Origin: Planctomycetota bacterium
GTDB taxonomy: Bacteria; Planctomycetota; PLA2; JAEUHO01
Direction: 5' to 3'
DNA: 64,000 nucleotides
Assembly: GCA_965223505.1 (NCBI GenBank)
Contig: CBDCWP010000043.1
Span: 64,001-128,000, forward strand
In this document: piece after piece, positions 2,825 to 20,510 of the stretch
How the letters are laid out: every line of letters begins with the position of its first letter
Numbering within the stretch: position 1 is the first letter of the stretch
Position numbers and translations under genes: made by a program
Notes under the pieces: generated by a model
Told to the model about the DNA's origin: nothing
The model's database searches: none
The model's input: the letters and a program-made list of their open reading frames with translations, nothing else

Positions 2825-5800
2825 CTAGTTCGGCAGTCCCCACAGAACCCAGGCGGCCCAGTAGTAGGGGTGCGACCACTTCTTCTGCGCCTTGACGTGC
2901 GATTGCGCCTCGCGCAAGGCCTCGGCGGCGCTCAGTCCCTTGGATCCGTCCTTCGGATTCCAGAGCTCGTAGAACTTGATCATGAGCGCCATCGTCGCGT
3001 CGTCGTCCACCTTCCAGAGCGAGCAGAGGATGCGCGGCGCGCCCGCGTACATGAAGGAACGCGTCAGGCCGAGCATGCCCTCGCCGCGAACCTGCGTTCC
3101 CTGCGCCGTCTCACAGGCCGACAGCACCGCGAGGTCCGCGGGCATCTCCATGAAGAACACCTCGCGCGCCGTCAGGAAGCCGTCCGATAGCACCAGCGCA
3201 CACTTCGCCGGATCCGGGTCCAGGAGCCCATGGCAGGCCAGGTGGACCGCGCGCCAGCGCTCCTTCTTCGCGAGCGCCTTGCGCAGCTCGGCCTGCGTCG
3301 CCTGGGCGCCGAGCAGGATCTCGTCGCCGACGGCCTTGGCCTCCGGCCCCGTCGCCGGCAACCGGGCGAGCTTGCCGCTGTGCGCGCCGGATCGGCGAGC
3401 GGCAAAGACCTGCGTTTCGTGGGCTCCGATCTCGTCGTACACGGGGTCTCCGAGCGCGAGCACGCCCTTGCCGACGTCTTGGCTGTCGCGTACGAGAAAC
3501 GAATGCGTGCTGCCCGAGGGGGTGAGGGCTACCGGATGGTCGAAGAGCATCGCGAACGGCAGGTTGCAGAGCAGGTAGTCCGGCGAGATGAGCACCTTCT
3601 TCGTCGTCTTCGGCAGCGCCAGGGGCGCGACGATGAGCCCCTTGGCCTTCGCCAGCACCTTCGAAGCGTCGGTCTTCGGATCCGAGACGCTGACCAACGC
3701 GTTCGACACGCGCCAGAGATCGTCGGAGTTGCCGAGCTCGACGACCTTCGCGTCCTTCGACGTGAGGACGATGGCGAGCGTCTCGCTCGGCCCGACGCCG
3801 TAGATCACGAACGACGTATCCGGGTCGAGCACACCCTGTAGCTCTTCCAGCGTCGCGGCGCTGGGATAGAAGAGCGTCGTCGTCCTGCGACTCGCTTCCC
3901 GTTGGATCTTCGCCGTGACCTCCGCGAGGCGTGCTTGCGCCGCCTCCAGCGCGACCGCCGCGGCTCGGATCTTCTTCAGATTCCCGTCTTCGACGGCTCG
4001 CCGATACTGACCTTGGAGCGCCGACTCCTTCAGCTCCGCCTCACGCTCCGCGCGGCGCAGCCCCTCGGGCAAGTCTTCCCATCGCAAGACGTGACGCCCA
4101 CCGAGCAGTTCCAGCAGCGCACCCGCACGACCGCTCTCGAGAAAGGCCAGTGCCTCCGCCGTGTCGCCCATCCGCGTCGCTGCCAGCGCGCCGTAGTGGA
4201 AGAGCGTGCTGTAGTTCTCGCGGACGCTCGCCGCGTCACGGGCGCCCAGGCCGCCCAGCAGGTGTTCGACCTCCGCGCGCGCCTCGCGAGCCCGGAACAC
4301 GGCCGATGCGTTGTCATCGTCCTTGAGGTGGACCCACGTCAGAAGTCTCAGGACCCAGACGAGCAGGGAGCGTACTCGCAGGCGCCGGGCCTCCCGCTCG
4401 CACTGCTTCAGCTTCTCGATGCCCTTCGCGCGCTCGCCCTGCTCGATCAACACGTTGCCGATCGCACCGATGCAACGCGCTGCGAGGGCGCGATCCTTGA
4501 TCTCCTCCGCGAGGGCGTGGGCGCGCCGGTAGTACTCGATCGATTTGTCATGCTCGCCCTGCACCAAGTATGCGCGAGCCATGTTCGAAAGCGTGACCGC
4601 CTCGAGGTCATTCAACTCGAACACGGCGGCTTGCGCGAGGGCGGCGTTGTAGTACTCCATCGCGCCGTCGAAGTCCTCGAGATCTGCTCGCAGGAGCCCG
4701 AGCGCGGAGATGGCCCGCGCGGCGCCATCGGGCCTACCGCCGGACTTCATCTTCGCCAGCGCCTGCTCCGTGTAGACGAGCGCCCGGGAGCTGTTGCCGA
4801 CGCGCCAGTAGACGCCGGCGAGGTTCAGGAGGCCCTTGGCGATGTACTCCTCGTGACCGATCGCGCGCGCTTCCGCCAGTCCGATCTCGTGGTGGCGAAT
4901 CGCTTCCGCGTACATGCCCAGCGAGTCGTAGACGTTGCCCATGTTGATGTGCGTGCCCGCCCACTCGCCGCGGTTCCCGCTCTTCTTCCACAGTGGAAGC
5001 ACGCGCTCGTAGTTCTCGAGCGCCCGCTGGAAGTTCCCGAAGTGGTAGTTCGACAGGCCGAGGTGGTGCAGGGCGACCGTGACACCCGGCTCGTGACCGA
5101 CCTTGTTGAACAGCCGAAGCGCGCGTTCGTAGTATCCGATCGCCTCGACCCACCGCGTCTCGGACCGCGCGAGCATGGCCGCTTCCGTCAACGCGGCTCC
5201 GACGCCGAGCGTGAAGCCGATCGCCTCCCACGCCTCGACGGCGCGCTCGAACAGAGCCGTTGCCTTCGCCGAGTTGCCGAGCTTGGCCTCGAACCGACCC
5301 GCGAACGCGAAGCAGAGTCCCGCCTGCCTGAGCCACCCGAACGACGCCGCGCCCTCGGCCGCCGCCGTGTACGCCTCCGCCGCGTCCGCGGGCCGGTCCT
5401 GCATCTGCCGGATCATGCCTTCCTGGTGCGCGAGCATCACACCCGTGACCCGGTTCGTGGGTGCGCGCGGAAGGGGCAGCTCGGCGATGGCCTCATCCGG
5501 CTTGCGGGACACGAGCGCCTGCTTCGCGCGCACGAGCGCGTTGTACGCCTCCTGACTCTCGTTCTCGCCGTTCATCGACTCGACGTACTCGACCAGCCTC
5601 TCGGTCGCGGGCCGCCGTCCGACCTTGGCGAAGCGGACCGCCGCGTCGTGCTCCCCACGGCGGCACAGCTCGCTCACGACGACCCAGGGATCGGGGGCGT
5701 CGCTCTTGGCGAGCGCCTCGAGCGCCGCATCGTCACCCTCGGCGATCGCGGCGAGGACCTTCTCTGCGGCAGTGAACGCGCCGTCGTTTCGTTCGGCCTG

Positions 5801-13117: not shown

Positions 13118-14485
13118 CTAGCCGTTCGAACGCGTCGTCTGGGTGAGATAGTCGACGAGGTCGATCTTGCTCAGCAGCCCGAGCAGGCAGCCGTCGTCGT
13201 CGACGACCAGCGCGACGTAGCCGTCGGCGAACAGCCGCGTCAGGCACGCCGCGTCGTCGTCTACGTGGACCGTCTGCACGTTGCGCAGCATGACCTCCGC
13301 GACCGACGTCTCGAGCGTCGCGTGTCCGTCGACGAGCCGCGAGAGCAAGTCGCCCTCGGTGACGATGCCGGCCAGGCGTCCCGACTCGAGCACCGGCAGC
13401 TGGCTGATGCCGTGCTCCTTCATGCGGCGGACGGCGGTCTCGAGCGTGTCGCTGCCTTGCGCCGTGACGACGTCGCGCTGGGGAAGCGCGCGCAGCAGCT
13501 CGCCGAGCGATTGGGCCGCGAGCCGCTCTTCCTCGAACCCGTTCTCGCGCATCCAGCGGTCGTCGACGAACTTCGTCATGTAGTTGCGCACCGAGTCGGG
13601 CAGGAGCGTCACGATGCGCTTGTCGGGGCCGTACTTCTTCGCGATCTCGACCGCGGCCCACACCGCCGAACCGCACGACCCGCCGACGAGCAGTCCTTCC
13701 TGCCGGATCAGACGCCTTGCCATCTGGAACGAGTCCCGGTCGTTGGACTTGAGCCACTCGTCGACCAGGTCCACGTCGAGCACGTCGGGGATGAAGTCGT
13801 AGCCGATGCCTTCGACCTTGTACGGTCCGATCTCGCCCGGCCCCGCGAGGATCGAGCCCACGGGATCGACGCCGATGATCTTGCAGTCCGGCGCGCCTTC
13901 CTTCACCCGCTTCGCCGCGCCCGTCAGCGTGCCGCCGGTGCCGGCCGTCAAGACGAGGTAGTCGAGGCGGCCGTCGGTCTGTTCCAGGATCTCCTGCCCC
14001 GTGCCCTCGAAGTGCGCGAGCGGATTGTCGGGGTTGCCGTACTGATCGAGGATGTGCGCGTTCGGGAGGATCTCTTCCAGCTGCTTGGCCACGCCGATGT
14101 GGCTCTCCGGCGAGTCGAACGCCGCCTCGGTCGGCGTGCGAATGATCTCCGCGCCCAGCGCTTCGAGGATGACCTGCTTCTCGCGACTCATCTTCTCGGG
14201 CATCGTAATGATCATCCGATAGCCCTTGATCGCCGCGGCCAGGGCCATGCCGATGCCCGTGTTGCCCGACGTCGGCTCGATCAGCGTGTCGCCGGGATTG
14301 ATCCGGCCGCTCTTCTCCGCCTCTTCGACCATGCGCCGGCCGATGCGGTCCTTGACCGAGCCGCCGGGGCTCACGAACTCGCACTTGGCGAGGATCTCGC
14401 ACCCGGTCTCCCGGCCGATGCGGTTGAGGCGCACCATCGGTGTGTTCCCGATGGCCTCCAGGATGGTTCCGAGGATGTGACCCAT
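13118..14485 (-). CDS. cbs: Cystathionine beta-synthase (PLP domain + C-terminal CBS pair)
   Basis: PGGSVKDR, EPTSGNTG, GTGGT, YKVEGIGYDFIP, DSVRNYMTKF, CBS domains. AAGGAG RBS before ATG 14485. Confidence 0.92.
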   Translation of the reverse strand: MGHILGTILEAIGNTPMVRLNRIGRETGCEILAKCEFVSPGGSVKDRIGRRMVEEAEKSGRINPGDTLIEPTSGNTGIGMALAAAIKGYRMIITMPEKMSREKQVILEALGAEIIRTPTEAAFDSPESHIGVAKQLEEILPNAHILDQYGNPDNPLAHFEGTGQEILEQTDGRLDYLVLTAGTGGTLTGAAKRVKEGAPDCKIIGVDPVGSILAGPGEIGPYKVEGIGYDFIPDVLDVDLVDEWLKSNDRDSFQMARRLIRQEGLLVGGSCGSAVWAAVEIAKKYGPDKRIVTLLPDSVRNYMTKFVDDRWMRENGFEEERLAAQSLGELLRALPQRDVVTAQGSDTLETAVRRMKEHGISQLPVLESGRLAGIVTEGDLLSRLVDGHATLETSVAEVMLRNVQTVHVDDDAACLTRLFADGYVALVVDDDGCLLGLLSKIDLVDYLTQTTRSNG

Positions 14486-14719
14486 GGGTGCTCCTTGCGG
14501 GGGCCGGAAGGTACCACCTCGCCCTTCGATGGTCGGTTTCGCGCCACGCCGGAATCCGGCCCGCGGCCTACCGGGGATCCGCACGGGGCGGTAGCCGATC
14601 CGCGATTTTCGTCCCGATTCGGCCCAATCGGCAGGATTCGAAATTGCGCGACGCCTTCGATTGGAGGTCGCGTGAGCTAGAATCCCGGCTCAGGGCATGC
14701 GCCCCTGGGAGTACCCGCT

Positions 14720-15742
14720 ATGCGTATCTGCACACTTCTCGGCGCAACCGCGCTCGCGTTCCTTCTCGCCACGACGGCTTGGTCCGAAGGCGGCATCGCC
14801 GTCGGCGAAGAGGCCCCCGACTTCGAGGGCGGTGACGTCCTCAACTCCGAGCCGATCAAGGTCGGCGACCTGAAGGGACGGTTGATCCTGCTGGAGCTCT
14901 TCAGCACGACCTGAGGTCCGTGCAAGACTCAGGTCGGGCACCTGAACGAGCTTCACGAAACGTACGATGGCAAGGGACTCACGGTTCTCTCGGTGACCGG
15001 TGAGGACAGGGACCGAGTCGAGCCCTTCGTCGAGGAGTTCGGCGCGAACTTTCCCATCATGTGCCAGGCACAGTCGGGCGCGTACTCGACGGGCGGCGTT
15101 CCGTCCGCGTACCTGATCGGCGCCGACGGCACCGTCGTATGGCAAGGCCATCCGGGCAATCTCCAGGATTCCGAGATCGAAGGACATCTGAAGGACGTCA
15201 AGAAAGCCGACCGCGTGAGCACGTGGGCCTTCACGATCGTCAAGCAGCTGCCGCCGGTTCCGGACAAGCTCAAGGGCGTCAAGAAGAGCCTCGAGAAGAT
15301 GAAGTTCGGCGCCGCGCTCAAGACCGTGGAAGCGGCGCTTCCGAAGCTCGAAGGCGAAGATCTCGAGGCCGGCGAGGCGATCCGCGACTGGATCGCCGGC
15401 AACGGGAAGACCAGCATGGACAAAGCCGCCACGCTCGTGCGCGAGAACAAGATCTACGACGCGTTCCTCGTGTACGAGGGTGTCGAGGACCGCTTCAAGG
15501 GACACCAGCTCGGCAAGGACGCGAAGGCCGCCGCCAAGGAGCTCAAGAGCGGCAAGGAAACCGGTCTCGAGATCAAGGCATCCGAGAAGCTCATCAAGGC
15601 CAAGAAGGAAATGCGCGGCGAAAAGAAGTTCGAAGACCAGCTCAAGTGCTTGAAGCCGGTTCTCTCGAAGAAGTACGCCGAGACCGCAGCCGGCAAGGAA
15701 GCGGCCAAGATGGCCGAGGACATCGAGGCGAAGCTCAAGTAG
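14720..15742 (+). CDS. Putative selenoprotein: exported TlpA/redoxin-family thiol-disulfide oxidoreductase with U-G-P-C motif (UGA 14912-14914 = Sec65) and Lys-rich helical C-terminal extension, 340 aa
   Basis: ORFs 14720-14914 and 14993-15742 are in frame. Readthrough gives VGEEAPDF...LKGRLILLELFSTT-U-GPCKTQVGHLNELHETYDGKGLTVLSV...GVPSAYLIGADGTVVWQG. The TGA occupies the first Cys of CxxC. Signal peptide present. Confidence 0.9.
14929..14945 (+). promoter_or_regulatory. Candidate bacterial SECIS hairpin
   Basis: TCAGGT-CGGGC-ACCTGA: perfect 6-bp stem. Loop starts 20 nt after the UGA with G at its second position. Confidence 0.68.
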
Positions 15743-15873
15743 CCCGCCTTCCGAGAGCGTCCAGAGCATCCGGCAAGCAGCAGGCCTGGGCGGGTCTACG
15801 AACGGACCCCGTCACCAAAGTAGTTGCCTCCTTGCGCAGGGTCGGCTCCCACCGCTACGCTCGCGGTTTGGAG

Positions 15874-18108
15874 ATGACCTTGATGTATGTGACGAAGTTG
15901 CGCGTGTGGACGCTGGCGGTCATCGCGGTCGTCTGCGTCTCGTCCACCGCGGTGCGCGCGGAAGAGGCGACGCCGAAGGCGGAATTCGAGAAAGCGCTCC
16001 GGGTCGCCAAGCGGATGCTCCAGAACGAGCGTCCGAAGTCCGGGATGAGGATCCTGAAGAAGGCGCTCGAGACGCACGCCCGCAAGGACTACGTCTACGC
16101 CCGCAAGGCCGACATCGAAGACGTCATCCGCCAGCTGGCGTTCGGGACCGAGAACAAGCTGCCGAAGCCGGAGGACGTCGTTGCCGGCAAGCTGCTGAAG
16201 TACACGCCGAAGACCGGCAAGATCCACATCCAGTACGACAAGCAGGCTGCCCTGAAGGACTTCGAGAAGGAAGGCCCCTTGATGCTGTTCCCGGGCCACT
16301 TCAAAGGGCCCTTCTACTTCAAGGTCCAGGGCGCCCGCTACCCCGGCCGAGCGGAAGACTCGCCGATGATCATCATCGGCCAGGTCGAGCACCCGGAGAC
16401 GGGCAAGCTCCAGATCTGGCAGTACCTCTGCGGCATTCCCGAGTACCGCAAGGGCGGCAGCGTCTATTGGCTGCCCGCCCAGCTCATCCATCACGACGGG
16501 GAAGAGAAGCACGTGGTCTGGGACGACGAGCAGTGTCCCGCGTCCATCGGCCGCTGGTACACGATCTCGGTGGAGGTCGATGAGAGGTCGCACGATCTGA
16601 GCGTCAATTCGACGCACGTCGGCAGCGGAAGGAAGCCCGCGGGGGTCTACGGGCTGTGCGGCTTCGAGGCCCGGAGTTGGCAATCCGTCGAGATCAAGGG
16701 AACCGTCGAACCCGCGTGGATCCAGGCCAAGATCGACGCGATCGTCCAGAAGGAGCTCGCGGAGTTCGAGAAGACGTTCGATCGAGCCAAGTACCTTCCC
16801 GGCTGGCTGTTGAAAGCGCCGACACCACCCAAGACGCCGGCGCCTTCTTCGGGGCCGACCTTCGAGAGCACCGGCTATCCGAAGGACGTCACACAGGTGC
16901 AGGCCCGGAAGCTCGATCGGGTGCGCATGATGATCGAGATGGGCCAGTATGAGAAGGCGCTGGTCGAGATCGAAAAGCCGCGGCGCGAGTCCTATCCGTC
17001 CTCTGCCTGTTTCTATCTGTCCGCGCGGGCGCGGATGGAGCTCAATCAGATGAACCAGGCGCTCGCGGATCTGAACCGCTGCTTGAGGAAGGCGCCCGAG
17101 TTCGTCGAGGGCAAGCTCGTCAAGGGCACACTGCTGTGCAAGCTCGGTGACGTACAGGAAGCCGCGACGATGTTGAACAGCGTGCTCGATGCGCGGAAGT
17201 CGGACCCGCGCACGTACGAGGTCGCCGCGTTGTCGATGCTGATCGCGGGCCGTCCCGCGGAGGCGAAGGAGATCACCCAGCGTGCCGCAGGCGCGTCCGT
17301 GCGTTCGGCCGGTCTCGATCGGCTCAACAAGGTGCTCGTGCGCATCGTGAACGGCCCGGACTGGACGAAGTCCTGGAGCGAGAAGACGGCAAACTATCAG
17401 GTCTGCACGGACATCGACCGAAACACGGCGAAGAAGGCCGCGAAGGTGCTCGAAGAGGCCTACGCGATGTTCAACAAGGACCTCAAGAAGATCGAGCGCG
17501 ATCGTACGCGCAAGTTCAAGGTCTACCTCTTCAAGGGGCAGGCGGGGTTCCTCGCCTACCAGGAGGACCTCGCCGGCTTGTCGGGCAAGCCGTCGGAGAA
17601 CGCGGCCGGGATGTACAACACGCTTCTCAAGCAGCTGCTGATCTGGAACCTCCCCGAGCGCGAGGAGATGATGCGTACGGTGCGGCACGAGGGCTTTCAT
17701 CAGTATCTCGACCGCTACATGCCCAACGCCGCCGTGTGGTTCAACGAGGGGCTGGCGGAGTACTACGAGAACGCCAAGAAGGTGCGCGGCACCTGGACCG
17801 GCGGCCACGTGCACCACGCCTACCTGCGCATGCTGAAGAAGAAGCCGCCGCGGCCGCTCGAGGAGTTCCTCTACATCTCACCGCGGAAGTTCTACGAAGA
17901 AGGGCTCGACAACTACGCGCAGTCGTGGGCCTTCGTTCACATGCTGCGCAAGGGCGACGCGGCCCATCGCGCGTTGTTCGAGCGCTTCATGGACGCCTTC
18001 CAGGAGCACTCTTCGTTCGACGCCATGAAGAAGGTGTTGGCGGACGTCGACCTGAAGGAGCTCGACCAAGAGCTCGCCTCCTACTTGCAGGACCTTCGGG
18101 ACGACTAG
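15874..18108 (+). CDS. Secreted TPR + DUF1570-like (gluzincin metallopeptidase) protein
   Basis: Signal peptide, TPR region, HEGFH...WFNEGLAEYY, YAQSWAFVH. The ORF-track part upstream of 15874 is a shadow of the preceding gene. Confidence 0.8.
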   Translation: MTLMYVTKLRVWTLAVIAVVCVSSTAVRAEEATPKAEFEKALRVAKRMLQNERPKSGMRILKKALETHARKDYVYARKADIEDVIRQLAFGTENKLPKPEDVVAGKLLKYTPKTGKIHIQYDKQAALKDFEKEGPLMLFPGHFKGPFYFKVQGARYPGRAEDSPMIIIGQVEHPETGKLQIWQYLCGIPEYRKGGSVYWLPAQLIHHDGEEKHVVWDDEQCPASIGRWYTISVEVDERSHDLSVNSTHVGSGRKPAGVYGLCGFEARSWQSVEIKGTVEPAWIQAKIDAIVQKELAEFEKTFDRAKYLPGWLLKAPTPPKTPAPSSGPTFESTGYPKDVTQVQARKLDRVRMMIEMGQYEKALVEIEKPRRESYPSSACFYLSARARMELNQMNQALADLNRCLRKAPEFVEGKLVKGTLLCKLGDVQEAATMLNSVLDARKSDPRTYEVAALSMLIAGRPAEAKEITQRAAGASVRSAGLDRLNKVLVRIVNGPDWTKSWSEKTANYQVCTDIDRNTAKKAAKVLEEAYAMFNKDLKKIERDRTRKFKVYLFKGQAGFLAYQEDLAGLSGKPSENAAGMYNTLLKQLLIWNLPEREEMMRTVRHEGFHQYLDRYMPNAAVWFNEGLAEYYENAKKVRGTWTGGHVHHAYLRMLKKKPPRPLEEFLYISPRKFYEEGLDNYAQSWAFVHMLRKGDAAHRALFERFMDAFQEHSSFDAMKKVLADVDLKELDQELASYLQDLRDD

Positions 18109-18311: not shown

Positions 18312-20510
18312 CTACTTGTCGTCCGGGGTCGTCAGCTCGACCTCCGCCGACGACACCGACGACGTATCGATCGCGCCGAGCACGACGCGCTTGCCTTCGC
18401 TGAGGATCGAGAGCTCGATCGTTCCCCGCGGGAGGCCGGCGAAGGCGAACGTCCCGAGCCGGACCGGCGCCGTCCACTCGATGCCGCGATGGCGTTCGTC
18501 CGTGGACGTCGCCCGGATCAGGCTCGCGTACCCCTTCAGCGAACCCGAGACGCGCACTCCGCGTTCGACGTGCAGGTCGACGTCGGCGCCTCGGCCGGCG
18601 ACGGCGCGAACCGGCGGTCCCGACGGGTGGAAGGCCGAGTCCTGGCCGCCGGCGCGGAGACGAAACCTGTACGGACCGAGCATCGTGAAGGAGAAGCGAC
18701 CCTCGCGGTCGGTCGTGACCATCTCGACGGTGCCGAGCGCGTCGGCCGGCGCGTCGATCGCCTCGGCCAGCACCGGAATGCCGTAGAGAACGGCCGATGC
18801 GTCGAGTCCGTGAACCTGCCCGTGAAGCGAGTGCGAGCGCTGAAGCGTCAGCGTCACGGCCTCGCCGCCGGGCGCGGTGTTCTCGGCAAACGCGTCGAGG
18901 AAGCCTTCGATCTGCGTCTGAACGGTGTAGGTCCTGCGCTGATCCACCAGCCCGAACGTGTAGCGTCCGTTGCCGAGGAGTTCCGCGGATCGAGCGGACG
19001 GATCGTGATCGCTCGTGAGCCACACGCCGCTCCCCACGGAGACCGGCGTGCCGTCTTCATCCGCCAAGGTCACGTCCAGTCGCCGTCCGCGCGGCATCGT
19101 CAGCACGACCGCGTCGCCCACGGCGACGCGCGCGCTAGCGTTCGCGAAGCCCTCGTCGAGGCGTTCACCGGGCTGCGCCGCGTGCGCGCCCGCAAGGACG
19201 TACTCGCCGTCCTTCGGGACACCGACGAAGCGAAAGCGCCCCTCTTCGTCCAGCGTCGTCGTGCGGCGGTAGACCCGGCGGCTCTCCGCGGAATGCGCGT
19301 GAACCTCGATGTTTCCGGTCACGGCGTTCCCGAGGTCGTCGACGACGCGCCCCTCGATGACCGCGCCCGTTCGCACGGCGAGCTGCAATCCGTGCGAACC
19401 GCTCTCGACGCCGGTCCAGGAGTGCGGCAGAAGCACGGCGCCTTCGCCGTTCTCCCGCTGGTTCCTCGCATGGACGACGCGCAGGATGTACCGCGCCTTG
19501 TTCAGCCCGCGAAGGACGAATCGTCCGCCGCCATCCGTGCGGGTCGTGATCTCGGACGCACCCAGCGGGCGACCGATCTCGCGGGCCCCGATCAGGATGC
19601 CGGCGACCGGTGCGGCGTGCGTTGCCGGAAGCAGCCTGCCCGAGATCCCGTCCGCGTGTGCGACGACATCGCCGGGCGCCGGATCGACCTCCGTGTTCGC
19701 ATTCGCCCCGTCGGGTTCGCCCGACGGCACGGCCCGTCCGGCAAGACCGGGCGTCGCGCGATCCGTTCCGGCCAACGTCGTCGCGCCGTCCTCGGTCGTC
19801 GTCGAGTGCGTTGTCGTCGTGTCGTCGCCGGATCGCGCGAAGCTCAGCACACCGAATCCGACCGCGACGGTCACGGCCGCCGCCGCCACGACCTTGAGCG
19901 CGCCGCCGTTCGACGCGAACCAGCCTTGCGCCGCCGTCGCGCCGGTCGCGGTCGCCGTCTCGAAGACCCCGTGCGGCAGCAGCAGCGGTGTCAGCGCCGC
20001 CATCCACGCGCTGCGGCCCCCTTCGTGATTGCGGTCCAGCCGCTCGCGCAGCTTGGCGCGCGCGCGGGCCAGCCGCGACTTCACGGTCTCGATCGACACG
20101 CCCTGGGTCTCCGCGATCGAGCTAAGCGAACGACCCCCGACGTAGCGGAACAGCACCGTGCTGCGATACGGCTCGGACAGCGAGAGCACGGCGTGGGTGA
20201 CGCGCTCGTGCGTCTCGGCGCGTTGGGCGAGCTGCTCGGCGGTCGCCTCTTCGAATGCGGGCTCATCGAGCGGCGCGCTCCGCACCTTGCGCGCGCGGCT
20301 CTTGTCGTACGCGACGTTGCGCATCACCGTCGCCAGCCAGCCGCGGATCGAACGCCGGTGCCGCGGCGGCTTCCGGAGCGCGCGCAGCCAGACCTCTTGT
20401 TCGAGGTCGTCCGCACGGCTCTCGTCGCGGACGAGCTCGCGCGCGAGTCGCTTCAGCCAGCTGCGGTGCTGCAGCAGCTCGTCGAACGGAACCGGTGTGG
20501 CGTCAGCCAT
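18312..20510 (-). CDS. ECF sigma-70 factor fused to a TM helix and carboxypeptidase-regulatory-like beta domains
   Basis: RADDLEQEVW, GWLATV, region 4 TVKSRLARAR, hydrophobic VVAAAAVTVAVGFGVL, repeated TD.GRF beta-sandwich motifs. Confidence 0.85.
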   Translation of the reverse strand: MADATPVPFDELLQHRSWLKRLARELVRDESRADDLEQEVWLRALRKPPRHRRSIRGWLATVMRNVAYDKSRARKVRSAPLDEPAFEEATAEQLAQRAETHERVTHAVLSLSEPYRSTVLFRYVGGRSLSSIAETQGVSIETVKSRLARARAKLRERLDRNHEGGRSAWMAALTPLLLPHGVFETATATGATAAQGWFASNGGALKVVAAAAVTVAVGFGVLSFARSGDDTTTTHSTTTEDGATTLAGTDRATPGLAGRAVPSGEPDGANANTEVDPAPGDVVAHADGISGRLLPATHAAPVAGILIGAREIGRPLGASEITTRTDGGGRFVLRGLNKARYILRVVHARNQRENGEGAVLLPHSWTGVESGSHGLQLAVRTGAVIEGRVVDDLGNAVTGNIEVHAHSAESRRVYRRTTTLDEEGRFRFVGVPKDGEYVLAGAHAAQPGERLDEGFANASARVAVGDAVVLTMPRGRRLDVTLADEDGTPVSVGSGVWLTSDHDPSARSAELLGNGRYTFGLVDQRRTYTVQTQIEGFLDAFAENTAPGGEAVTLTLQRSHSLHGQVHGLDASAVLYGIPVLAEAIDAPADALGTVEMVTTDREGRFSFTMLGPYRFRLRAGGQDSAFHPSGPPVRAVAGRGADVDLHVERGVRVSGSLKGYASLIRATSTDERHRGIEWTAPVRLGTFAFAGLPRGTIELSILSEGKRVVLGAIDTSSVSSAEVELTTPDDK

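Follow-up and report, generated by a model that had tools for sequence, protein, structure and literature searches.

A predicted exported selenoprotein of the ResA/TlpA type with a TPR-like helical tail, split by gene calling in a Planctomycetota genome

The stretch of DNA examined in this study, hereafter the window, comprises 64,000 nucleotides from a Planctomycetota bacterium (contig CBDCWP010000043.1 of assembly GCA_965223505.1, positions 64,001 to 128,000 of the forward strand). At positions 14720-15742 of its forward strand lies a reading frame of 340 codons that opens at ATG 14720, ends in a TAG stop (15740-15742) and contains a single in-frame TGA at codon 65 (14912-14914), followed by GGT CCG TGC (G-P-C) and no later stop before the TAG. 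Open reading frame (ORF) calling with translation table 11 divides this locus into a 64-aa ORF ending at the TGA and a 249-aa ORF opening at GTG 14993. An earlier note, made from the sequence without database searches, had drawn attention to the frame continuing past the 64-aa ORF, had expected gene callers to split the gene, and had proposed that the TGA encodes selenocysteine (Sec); the ORF listing and the translation bear out its description. Read through, with TGA shown as U, the frame carries the redox motif U-G-P-C at 14912-14923. We conclude that 14720-15742 is very probably one gene, whose product is an exported ResA/TlpA-type thiol-disulfide oxidoreductase that has Sec at the attacking position of U65-G-P-C68.

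Homologous genes bear on the nature of codon 65. As the earlier note had proposed, we asked whether relatives carry Cys or TGA at this column, and among 40 distinct homologous genes of Planctomycetota the codon is TGA in 37 and TGC in 3. When the genome and 40 relatives were searched in six frames, all but one of the 41 genomes gave matches; 44 of the matches listed were near full length, with one in-frame TGA in 38 (one of these carries a terminal TAG as well) and none in 6, and a further 57 weaker matches lay outside those listed. Reading 21 gene copies from 20 loci codon by codon gave 18 TGA and 3 TGC (L026, L028 and L032), always with G/V-P-C next. A second collection was scanned with a peptide pattern, which gave 30 loci from Planctomycetota assemblies and the cultured Rohdeia mirabilis Pla163 (locus L057, TGA at 4124); because that pattern lies downstream of the site, the scan is unbiased towards TGA. 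All 31 gene copies at these loci have TGA at the column. The pattern located 29 of them, and the two that it missed (L040, U-K-P-C, and L059, U-R-P-C) were read separately; 12 of the 31 duplicate the first set, leaving the 40 distinct genes. Together with the machinery described below and a reading frame that is conserved on both sides, this column strongly supports reading TGA 14912-14914 as Sec, in the N-terminal, nucleophilic position of a CxxC motif, as the earlier note had suggested for an exported TlpA-like oxidoreductase.

The history of the site can be read from a maximum-likelihood tree, midpoint-rooted only, that covers 33 Sec and 3 Cys proteins, 36 distinct ones in all, with two contig-truncated proteins left out. 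The Cys proteins sit at two separate points within clades that carry Sec, so that two changes are needed. On this topology the ancestral residue at the active site of the group appears to have been Sec, replaced by Cys at least twice.

The TGA lies one base from TGC, and Cys forms exist both among the loci above and among full-length database proteins (P0068-P0072), as would be seen if this were a TlpA-like gene killed by a TGC-to-TGA mutation or altered by an assembly error. Such a nonsense pseudogene is, however, practically out of the question, since the same TGA recurs in the 37 distinct homologous genes across several families of the phylum, the frame is free of further stops and of frameshifts, and the protein sequence is conserved on either side of the site. 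Upstream of the TGA, residues G29, A32, N42, G53 and E59 are invariant or nearly so in an alignment of 21 homologues, and the downstream frame, whose decay in relatives the earlier note had named as a sign of a pseudogene, is conserved in the same alignment. That note had also asked for the reads at 14912-14914 to be checked. The contigs examined here tell against an assembly error: assembled contigs from three public runs (two samples of one study, one run possibly being the source of the present assembly) span the TGA with 0 differences, so that the same TGA is seen in independent contigs. Other contigs in these runs match the 35-nt stretch at 14912-14946, comprising the UGA and the hairpin described below, and match that stretch alone (2 differences); their upstream codons differ and would read E-F-F-A-Y-W ahead of the TGA. 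Other members of the community thus seem to carry related Sec-redoxin genes in which the UGA and hairpin are almost identical base for base.

The division produced by ORF calling could in principle be real, with a 64-residue secreted peptide ending at the TGA and a separate 249-residue protein starting at GTG 14993. Table 11 yields exactly these two ORFs, and the 249-aa form and similar shortened forms are present in databases. The most conserved residues of the family nonetheless lie between the TGA and GTG 14993, where P67, C68, Q71, H74 and L75 are invariant among the 21 homologues, G66 is nearly so and V72 is also conserved; these would belong to neither product. The split would also break the thioredoxin fold within its active-site helix, and the larger piece would have no signal sequence, whereas the Cys-form homologues are single full-length proteins. 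Two separate products are therefore extremely improbable, and we regard the database forms as truncations of one gene. In a search of proteins of similar length, every strong match (P0002-P0056, 203-282 aa) covers just 59-79% of the query, while a search of longer proteins retrieved five full-length forms (P0068-P0072, 329-333 residues), all with W-C-G-P-C and labelled at source as thiol-disulfide isomerase/thioredoxin or peroxiredoxin. All Sec forms of the family that we found in public protein collections are N-terminally truncated entries named "hypothetical protein", which lack the signal sequence and the active site.

The machinery for Sec insertion, for which the earlier note had recommended a search, is complete in the same genome. 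We found selA (SelA, 9.2e-131), selD (SelD, 7.9e-101), a SelB wing domain (1.1e-14) within a 662-codon frame, and a tRNA-Sec gene (69.2 bits; anticodon TCA by ARAGORN). The tRNA-Sec gene lies on the same contig as the selenoprotein gene (G000:C43:10939-11033), about 53 kb before the start of the window, and selA is followed directly by selD outside the window at G000:C8:37088-39232. The selD gene has its own in-frame TGA, in the motif G-A-G-G-U-A-A-K, and a 7-bp hairpin downstream with a loop starting at +22; because of these two features, SelD of this genome is itself read as a selenoprotein. Two further thioredoxin-fold genes in the genome have a TGA at their redox motif: one at G000:C10:185174-186127 (reverse strand; T-T-U-G-P-C), whose product is 44% identical to that of 14720-15742, and one at G000:C34:163907-164230 (forward strand; P-R-U-P-A-C).

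Readthrough of another kind, by near-cognate insertion of Cys or Trp or through a lineage-wide reassignment of TGA, would by itself also keep the frame open. Yet TGA is the commonest stop of long open frames in this genome, ending 864 of the 1726 that are 600 codons or longer, and several homologues of the selenoprotein gene themselves terminate in TGA; the codon is not reassigned. With the Sec machinery complete, and with the site in the redox-active Cys column that is typical of Sec, readthrough without Sec is very improbable.

The product of the gene as read with Sec is a two-domain protein, and its first domain has a clear identity. A thioredoxin-fold redoxin domain of ResA/TlpA-like character spans residues 28-148 (14801-15163, forward strand). 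Pfam matches were obtained to AhpC-TSA (PF00578; residues 28-141, 1.2e-14, 54.8 bits against a cut-off of 26) and Redoxin (PF08534; residues 28-148, 5.1e-09, 36.5 bits against a cut-off of 26.6), with a weak match to GSHPx. The closest sequences in the PDB are the ResA-type protein 4nmu (7.4e-20), Bacillus subtilis ResA 1st9 (6.2e-14) and TlpA 1jfu (2.3e-05), and U65 aligns with the first Cys of the CxxC of the ResA-type proteins. An AlphaFold (AF2) model built from 21 homologues had a mean predicted local distance difference test score (pLDDT) of 89.7; Foldseek placed its N-terminal half on ResA with template modelling (TM) scores, normalised to the target, of 0.76-0.83, and helix 66-85 begins directly after U65. 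The GVPSAYLI loop that the earlier note had pointed out is present and aligns to the LPTSFLI loop of 4nmu at the cis-Pro position of the thioredoxin fold; its proline, Pro128 (15101-15103), is invariant in 21 of 21 homologues and, by analogy, presumably adopts the cis conformation.

With the ResA, TlpA and CcmG (DsbE) proteins (4nmu, 1st9, 1jfu) the protein has in common the fold, the cis-Pro loop, a CxxC position where helix 1 begins, and an N-terminal segment for export or anchoring. It differs from them in that Sec replaces the first Cys, a helical tail of 175 residues is added, and an invariant glutamine, Gln71, aligns with the glutamate three residues past the second Cys of the 4nmu CxxC. 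In ResA, E80 tunes the cysteine pKa values; for that reason Gln in place of Glu might, speculatively, suit a site whose nucleophile is already ionised.

The protein begins with a signal-peptide-like N-terminus (residues 1-22, MRICTLLGATALAFLLATTAWS, 14720-14785, forward strand), in which a basic start is followed by a hydrophobic core ending A-W-S, with the cleavage site placed by eye. One or more basic residues followed by a hydrophobic stretch open all 21 aligned homologues, and the AF2 model has low pLDDT across residues 1-22. These features suggest that the protein is exported.

A hairpin resembling a bacterial Sec insertion sequence (SECIS) follows the UGA at 14929-14945 on the forward strand. 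It matches exactly the perfect hairpin described in the earlier note, with a 6-bp stem of TCAGGT (14929-14934) and ACCTGA (14940-14945) closing a CGGGC loop (14935-14939), and 20 nt between the UGA and the loop, which starts 21 nt after the UGA; this places it at the usual SECIS distance. The literature criteria used by bSECISearch reportedly call for an apical loop roughly 16-37 nt from the UGA with a G in the loop. For each of 34 distinct Sec sequences we took the longest perfect stem whose loop begins 13-28 nt past the UGA; its mean length was 5.79 bp, against 4.88 bp in synonymous controls. The summed stem length was 197, against 165.7 +/- 5.0 in synonymous-codon controls, and none of 300 simulations reached 197, a statistic that overstates independence because the sequences are related. 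In the three Cys forms the mean stem was 4.0 bp, against 3.79 bp in controls. The two thioredoxin-fold paralogues on G000:C10 and G000:C34, and selD, have hairpins of 6-7 bp after the UGA, with loops starting at +22, +30 and +22, respectively.

Within the clade of closest orthologues the hairpin occurs in two mutually exclusive registers over the same conserved peptide: a 5-nt loop at +21 in the window and L015, and a loop at +17 or +18 on a 6-7-bp stem in six orthologues. These six (L016-L021), out of the eight closest, have the hairpin three to four bases upstream with the loop GGT (AGGTC in L016) beginning 17-18 nt past the UGA. This shifted hairpin keeps its pairing at one position through C-G in three of the six, G-C in two and U-A in one, a pair that joins the non-synonymous middle base and the synonymous third base of a Gly codon.

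Several observations weigh against the interpretation given here, most of them concerning the hairpin. The 6-bp stem was equalled or exceeded in 10.5% of 1000 peptide-preserving synonymous controls and so, taken alone, is not beyond chance, and its core (CAGGT...ACCTG) is what the conserved peptide Q-V-x-H-L (QVGHL) encodes. Six of the 34 Sec sequences, all distant members, have stems shorter than almost all of their controls. The minimum free energy (MFE) of the 45 nt after the UGA was no better than in synonymous controls (mean z +0.08 for the 34 Sec sequences and -1.05 for the three Cys forms), and a 76-nt fold around the UGA was not stabler than shuffled sequences (z = -0.60), its MFE structure pairing the UGA itself in a different stem. 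Covariation in the family alignment is weak: two-sided changes occur at pair 18-34 only (UA in 10, CG in 4, unpaired in 20), with a score that 38 of 500 shuffles reached. An Rfam scan of 14000-16500 at E <= 10 returned three unrelated weak matches and nothing SECIS-like. The shifted register was also considered as a structure common to the whole family and was rejected, with 42% of cells paired, no better than in slid controls. As the evidence for a SECIS is mixed and forms the weakest link in the argument, we treat the hairpin at 14929-14945 only as the probable SelB site, a candidate rather than a demonstrated one.

The remaining contrary points concern export, family models and context. The assignment to an exported protein is a by-eye reading of the N-terminus. 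Neither the protein nor any of the 21 homologues reaches the curated cut-off of an NCBIfam model: the protein scores 82.9 bits against the ResA model NF002854 (cut-off 170) and 31.8 bits against NF041054 (cut-off 300), the latter over profile positions 68-221 of 354, which is the redoxin core only, and the best E-value for NF041054 among the 21 homologues is 2e-13. No neighbour is conserved, in that tblastn with four neighbours from the window yielded a single weak match across 49 loci, and a Pfam scan of 48 flanking ORFs at 10 loci found no shared partner. Because its window neighbours are not conserved beside homologues the gene looks free-standing, and because no gene neighbour is conserved the substrate and reductant named below are guesses.

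The second domain is a C-terminal tail of 175 residues (166-340; 15215-15739, forward strand), which corresponds to the long Lys/Glu-rich helical extension described in the earlier note: the last 175-190 residues or so are rich in Lys, Glu and Ala and are predicted to be all helical. Folded alone with AF2, the tail gave nine helices at a pLDDT of 92.7. It had no Pfam match at E <= 10 and no Foldseek match in the PDB at E <= 0.001, where the best rows were of tetratricopeptide repeat (TPR) type: BamD (E 0.09), YbgF, YfgM and YbbN (3qou, 0.48). With VIA-align, an aligner independent of Foldseek, the best match of the tail was to P58IPK TPR, with a Z of 7.8 that is within the range common for helical repeats, and a profile of the tail weakly matched CpoB TPR (E 0.0029) and YbgF (0.042) over about 35 residues. 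From these predictions and profile matches we conclude that the tail is a degenerate TPR-like repeat domain, and it is probably a protein-binding module.

The tail defines a large set of proteins. Its profile matched 1733 cluster representatives at E <= 0.001, 364 at 1e-10 and 28 at 1e-30. Among the best 150 matches, 78 are ORFs of 223-284 residues that begin just past the active-site position, and many of these have as their first residue the V or M of "(V/M)GHLN.L", as would follow from gene calls restarting after the TGA. A further 21 of the 150 are full length with CxxC at the expected distance, 30 are fragments, and 21 are of full-length size and lack CxxC by pattern. We read 19 of the last group; in several, the site reads SxxC or NxxC or has no Cys, and a few differ in architecture. 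Proteins with the same tail and NxxC, SxxC or no Cys at the active site include P0099, P0104, P0114, P0118, P0123, P0180 and others. Given such relatives, the redoxin-plus-tail family probably includes redox-inactive members. Some genomes carry two or three copies of the redoxin-plus-tail gene.

These properties raise the alternative that the selenoprotein acts as a peroxiredoxin (Prx)-like peroxidase, or as a thioredoxin (Trx)-TPR redox-assisted holdase ("chaperedoxin") like CnoX/YbbN, and not as a disulfide reductase of the ResA/TlpA type. AhpC-TSA is its best Pfam family and GSHPx a weak match, its tail resembles TPRs, and the weak fold matches include YbbN (3qou) and a Salmonella Trx-TPR protein (3qdn); the tail-bearing relatives with SxxC, NxxC or no Cys suggest, moreover, a function that survives the loss of redox chemistry. 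Against this, the motif occupies the CxxC position of thioredoxins and not the peroxidatic position of peroxiredoxins, and the best matches by both sequence and structure are ResA/TlpA/DsbE proteins. The CnoX/YbbN proteins are alike in having a thioredoxin fold followed by a TPR-like helical domain, but the protein encoded at 14720-15742 has a signal-like N-terminus and UxxC, and the fold matches are not significant (3qou, E 0.48, TM 0.26; 3qdn, E 1.2). CnoX is cytoplasmic, and its motif is without the first Cys. We therefore consider a peroxidase or holdase role unlikely, though of some weight, and continue with a reductase of the ResA/TlpA type.

In that reading, SelB with Sec-tRNA(Sec), recruited by the hairpin at 14929-14945, would insert Sec at UGA codon 65 in place of termination, and the N-terminal signal sequence would carry the protein across the cytoplasmic membrane. 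Outside, the U65 selenolate would attack a substrate disulfide and C68 would resolve the mixed selenenylsulfide. CcdA/DsbD-type proteins are the usual reductants of extracytoplasmic ResA/TlpA proteins, and the genome has two DsbD_TM/CcdA homologues; the oxidised U-C pair would probably be re-reduced through a membrane electron carrier of this type. The most likely role of the TPR-like tail would be to dock the substrate or a partner protein. Binding of SelB to the hairpin, export, the direction of electron flow, the role of the tail and the nature of the substrate are what we infer in this scheme, beyond the intact gene, the Sec/Cys column, the insertion machinery, the fold and the presence of the hairpin.

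The surroundings of the gene in the window include an opposite-strand pyridoxal phosphate enzyme with CBS domains, a downstream TPR/DUF1570 protein (15874-18105) and a sigma factor of the extracytoplasmic function (ECF) type with a long extension. A 1015-codon ORF on the forward strand (15061-18108) runs into the selenoprotein gene in another frame and is probably spurious, a product of high G+C content; the actual gene there likely starts at ATG 15874 and encodes the 744-residue TPR/DUF1570 protein, which has a hydrophobic N-terminus. The sigma-factor gene (18312-20510, reverse strand) encodes a 732-residue protein with N-terminal ECF sigma-70 regions 2 and 4 and a long extension containing a CarboxypepD_reg-like domain, an unusual sigma-factor fusion. 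Proteins of about 840 residues combining a PD40 beta-propeller with TPRs adjoin homologues of the selenoprotein gene at L038 (1345-3867 and 5108-7648) and L043 (1320-3845), maybe by chance; the downstream neighbour of the gene in the window is likewise a TPR protein. A scan for promoters and terminators turned up nothing promoter-like and a single terminator-like site, on the opposite strand; shuffled sequences gave more.

Selenoproteins of this general kind are well documented. Reviews of prokaryotic selenoproteins define a predicted "Prx-like thiol:disulfide oxidoreductase" family by PF00578 with UxxC or UxxU, and also list thiol:disulfide interchange, DsbA-like, thioredoxin-like and UGC-containing TlpA selenoprotein families (PMC13188914, PMC9312934). 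The Sargasso Sea study gives the Prx-like family a thioredoxin-like UXXC motif (PMC1088965), and the GOS study counted 225 "Prx-like 1" UxxC sequences and reported domain fusions of Prx-like selenoproteins (PMC2398784). Compared by these literature definitions, the protein studied here resembles the Prx-like thiol:disulfide oxidoreductases in having PF00578 with UxxC, Sec first and Cys homologues; it differs in its TPR-like tail, which goes unmentioned in the family descriptions as excerpted (PMC1088965, PMC2398784, PMC9312934, PMC13188914). Table S9 of a planctomycete genome paper contains two selenoprotein candidates named "thiol-disulfide isomerase-like thioredoxin", each of them annotated as a pair of adjacent genes on account of the TGA (PMC4807772). 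Likened by description only, they share with the present gene the phylum, the kind of protein and a Cys in the closest named homologue, and they differ in that no SECIS was found according to the table (PMC4807772).

Curated models exist for several ResA- or thioredoxin-like selenoprotein families of similar length, namely the "ResA-like WAxxUGC motif-containing protein" NF041054 (354 positions), NF041382 (VPGUxxT), NF040769 (SelL-related) and NF053656 (TUGYCR); the protein encoded at 14720-15742 matches NF041054 in the redoxin core only and is no member of it. Full-text literature searches, which covered passages rather than whole texts or all supplements, returned no description of the helical tail. 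The suggestion in the earlier note that an architecture of UxxC plus helical tail may be undescribed therefore holds only in a narrow sense: the tail has no curated model, but UxxC Prx-like selenoproteins have long been described and split planctomycete candidates have already been tabulated.

Taken together, the gene is a real, conserved, mis-annotated selenoprotein of a well-known kind with an ordinary mechanism, and accounts of UxxC selenoproteins of the Prx-like or thiol:disulfide oxidoreductase kind go back to 2004-2005. What is mildly new is the TPR-like tail, the defining feature of a large Planctomycetota family that has no curated model. It is possible, though we would put it at somewhat less than even chances, that the redoxin with its TPR-like tail forms a distinct family in which the tail serves as a substrate-docking module, so that its members would be "seleno-chaperedoxins" of the periplasm or reductases specific to certain clients (for example in the maturation of cytochromes or copper centres) and not generic copies of TlpA.

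What is known of Sec encoding and of the action of UxxC redoxins is unchanged by this gene. Because its Sec forms are annotated as truncated proteins without the active site, however, the selenoproteomes and redox inventories of Planctomycetota are undercounted, and a curated model with a Sec flag would mend hundreds of gene calls. With this gene, a phylum in which little is known of redox biology in the envelope also gains a predicted exported disulfide reductase that depends on Sec and has a putative protein-binding tail.

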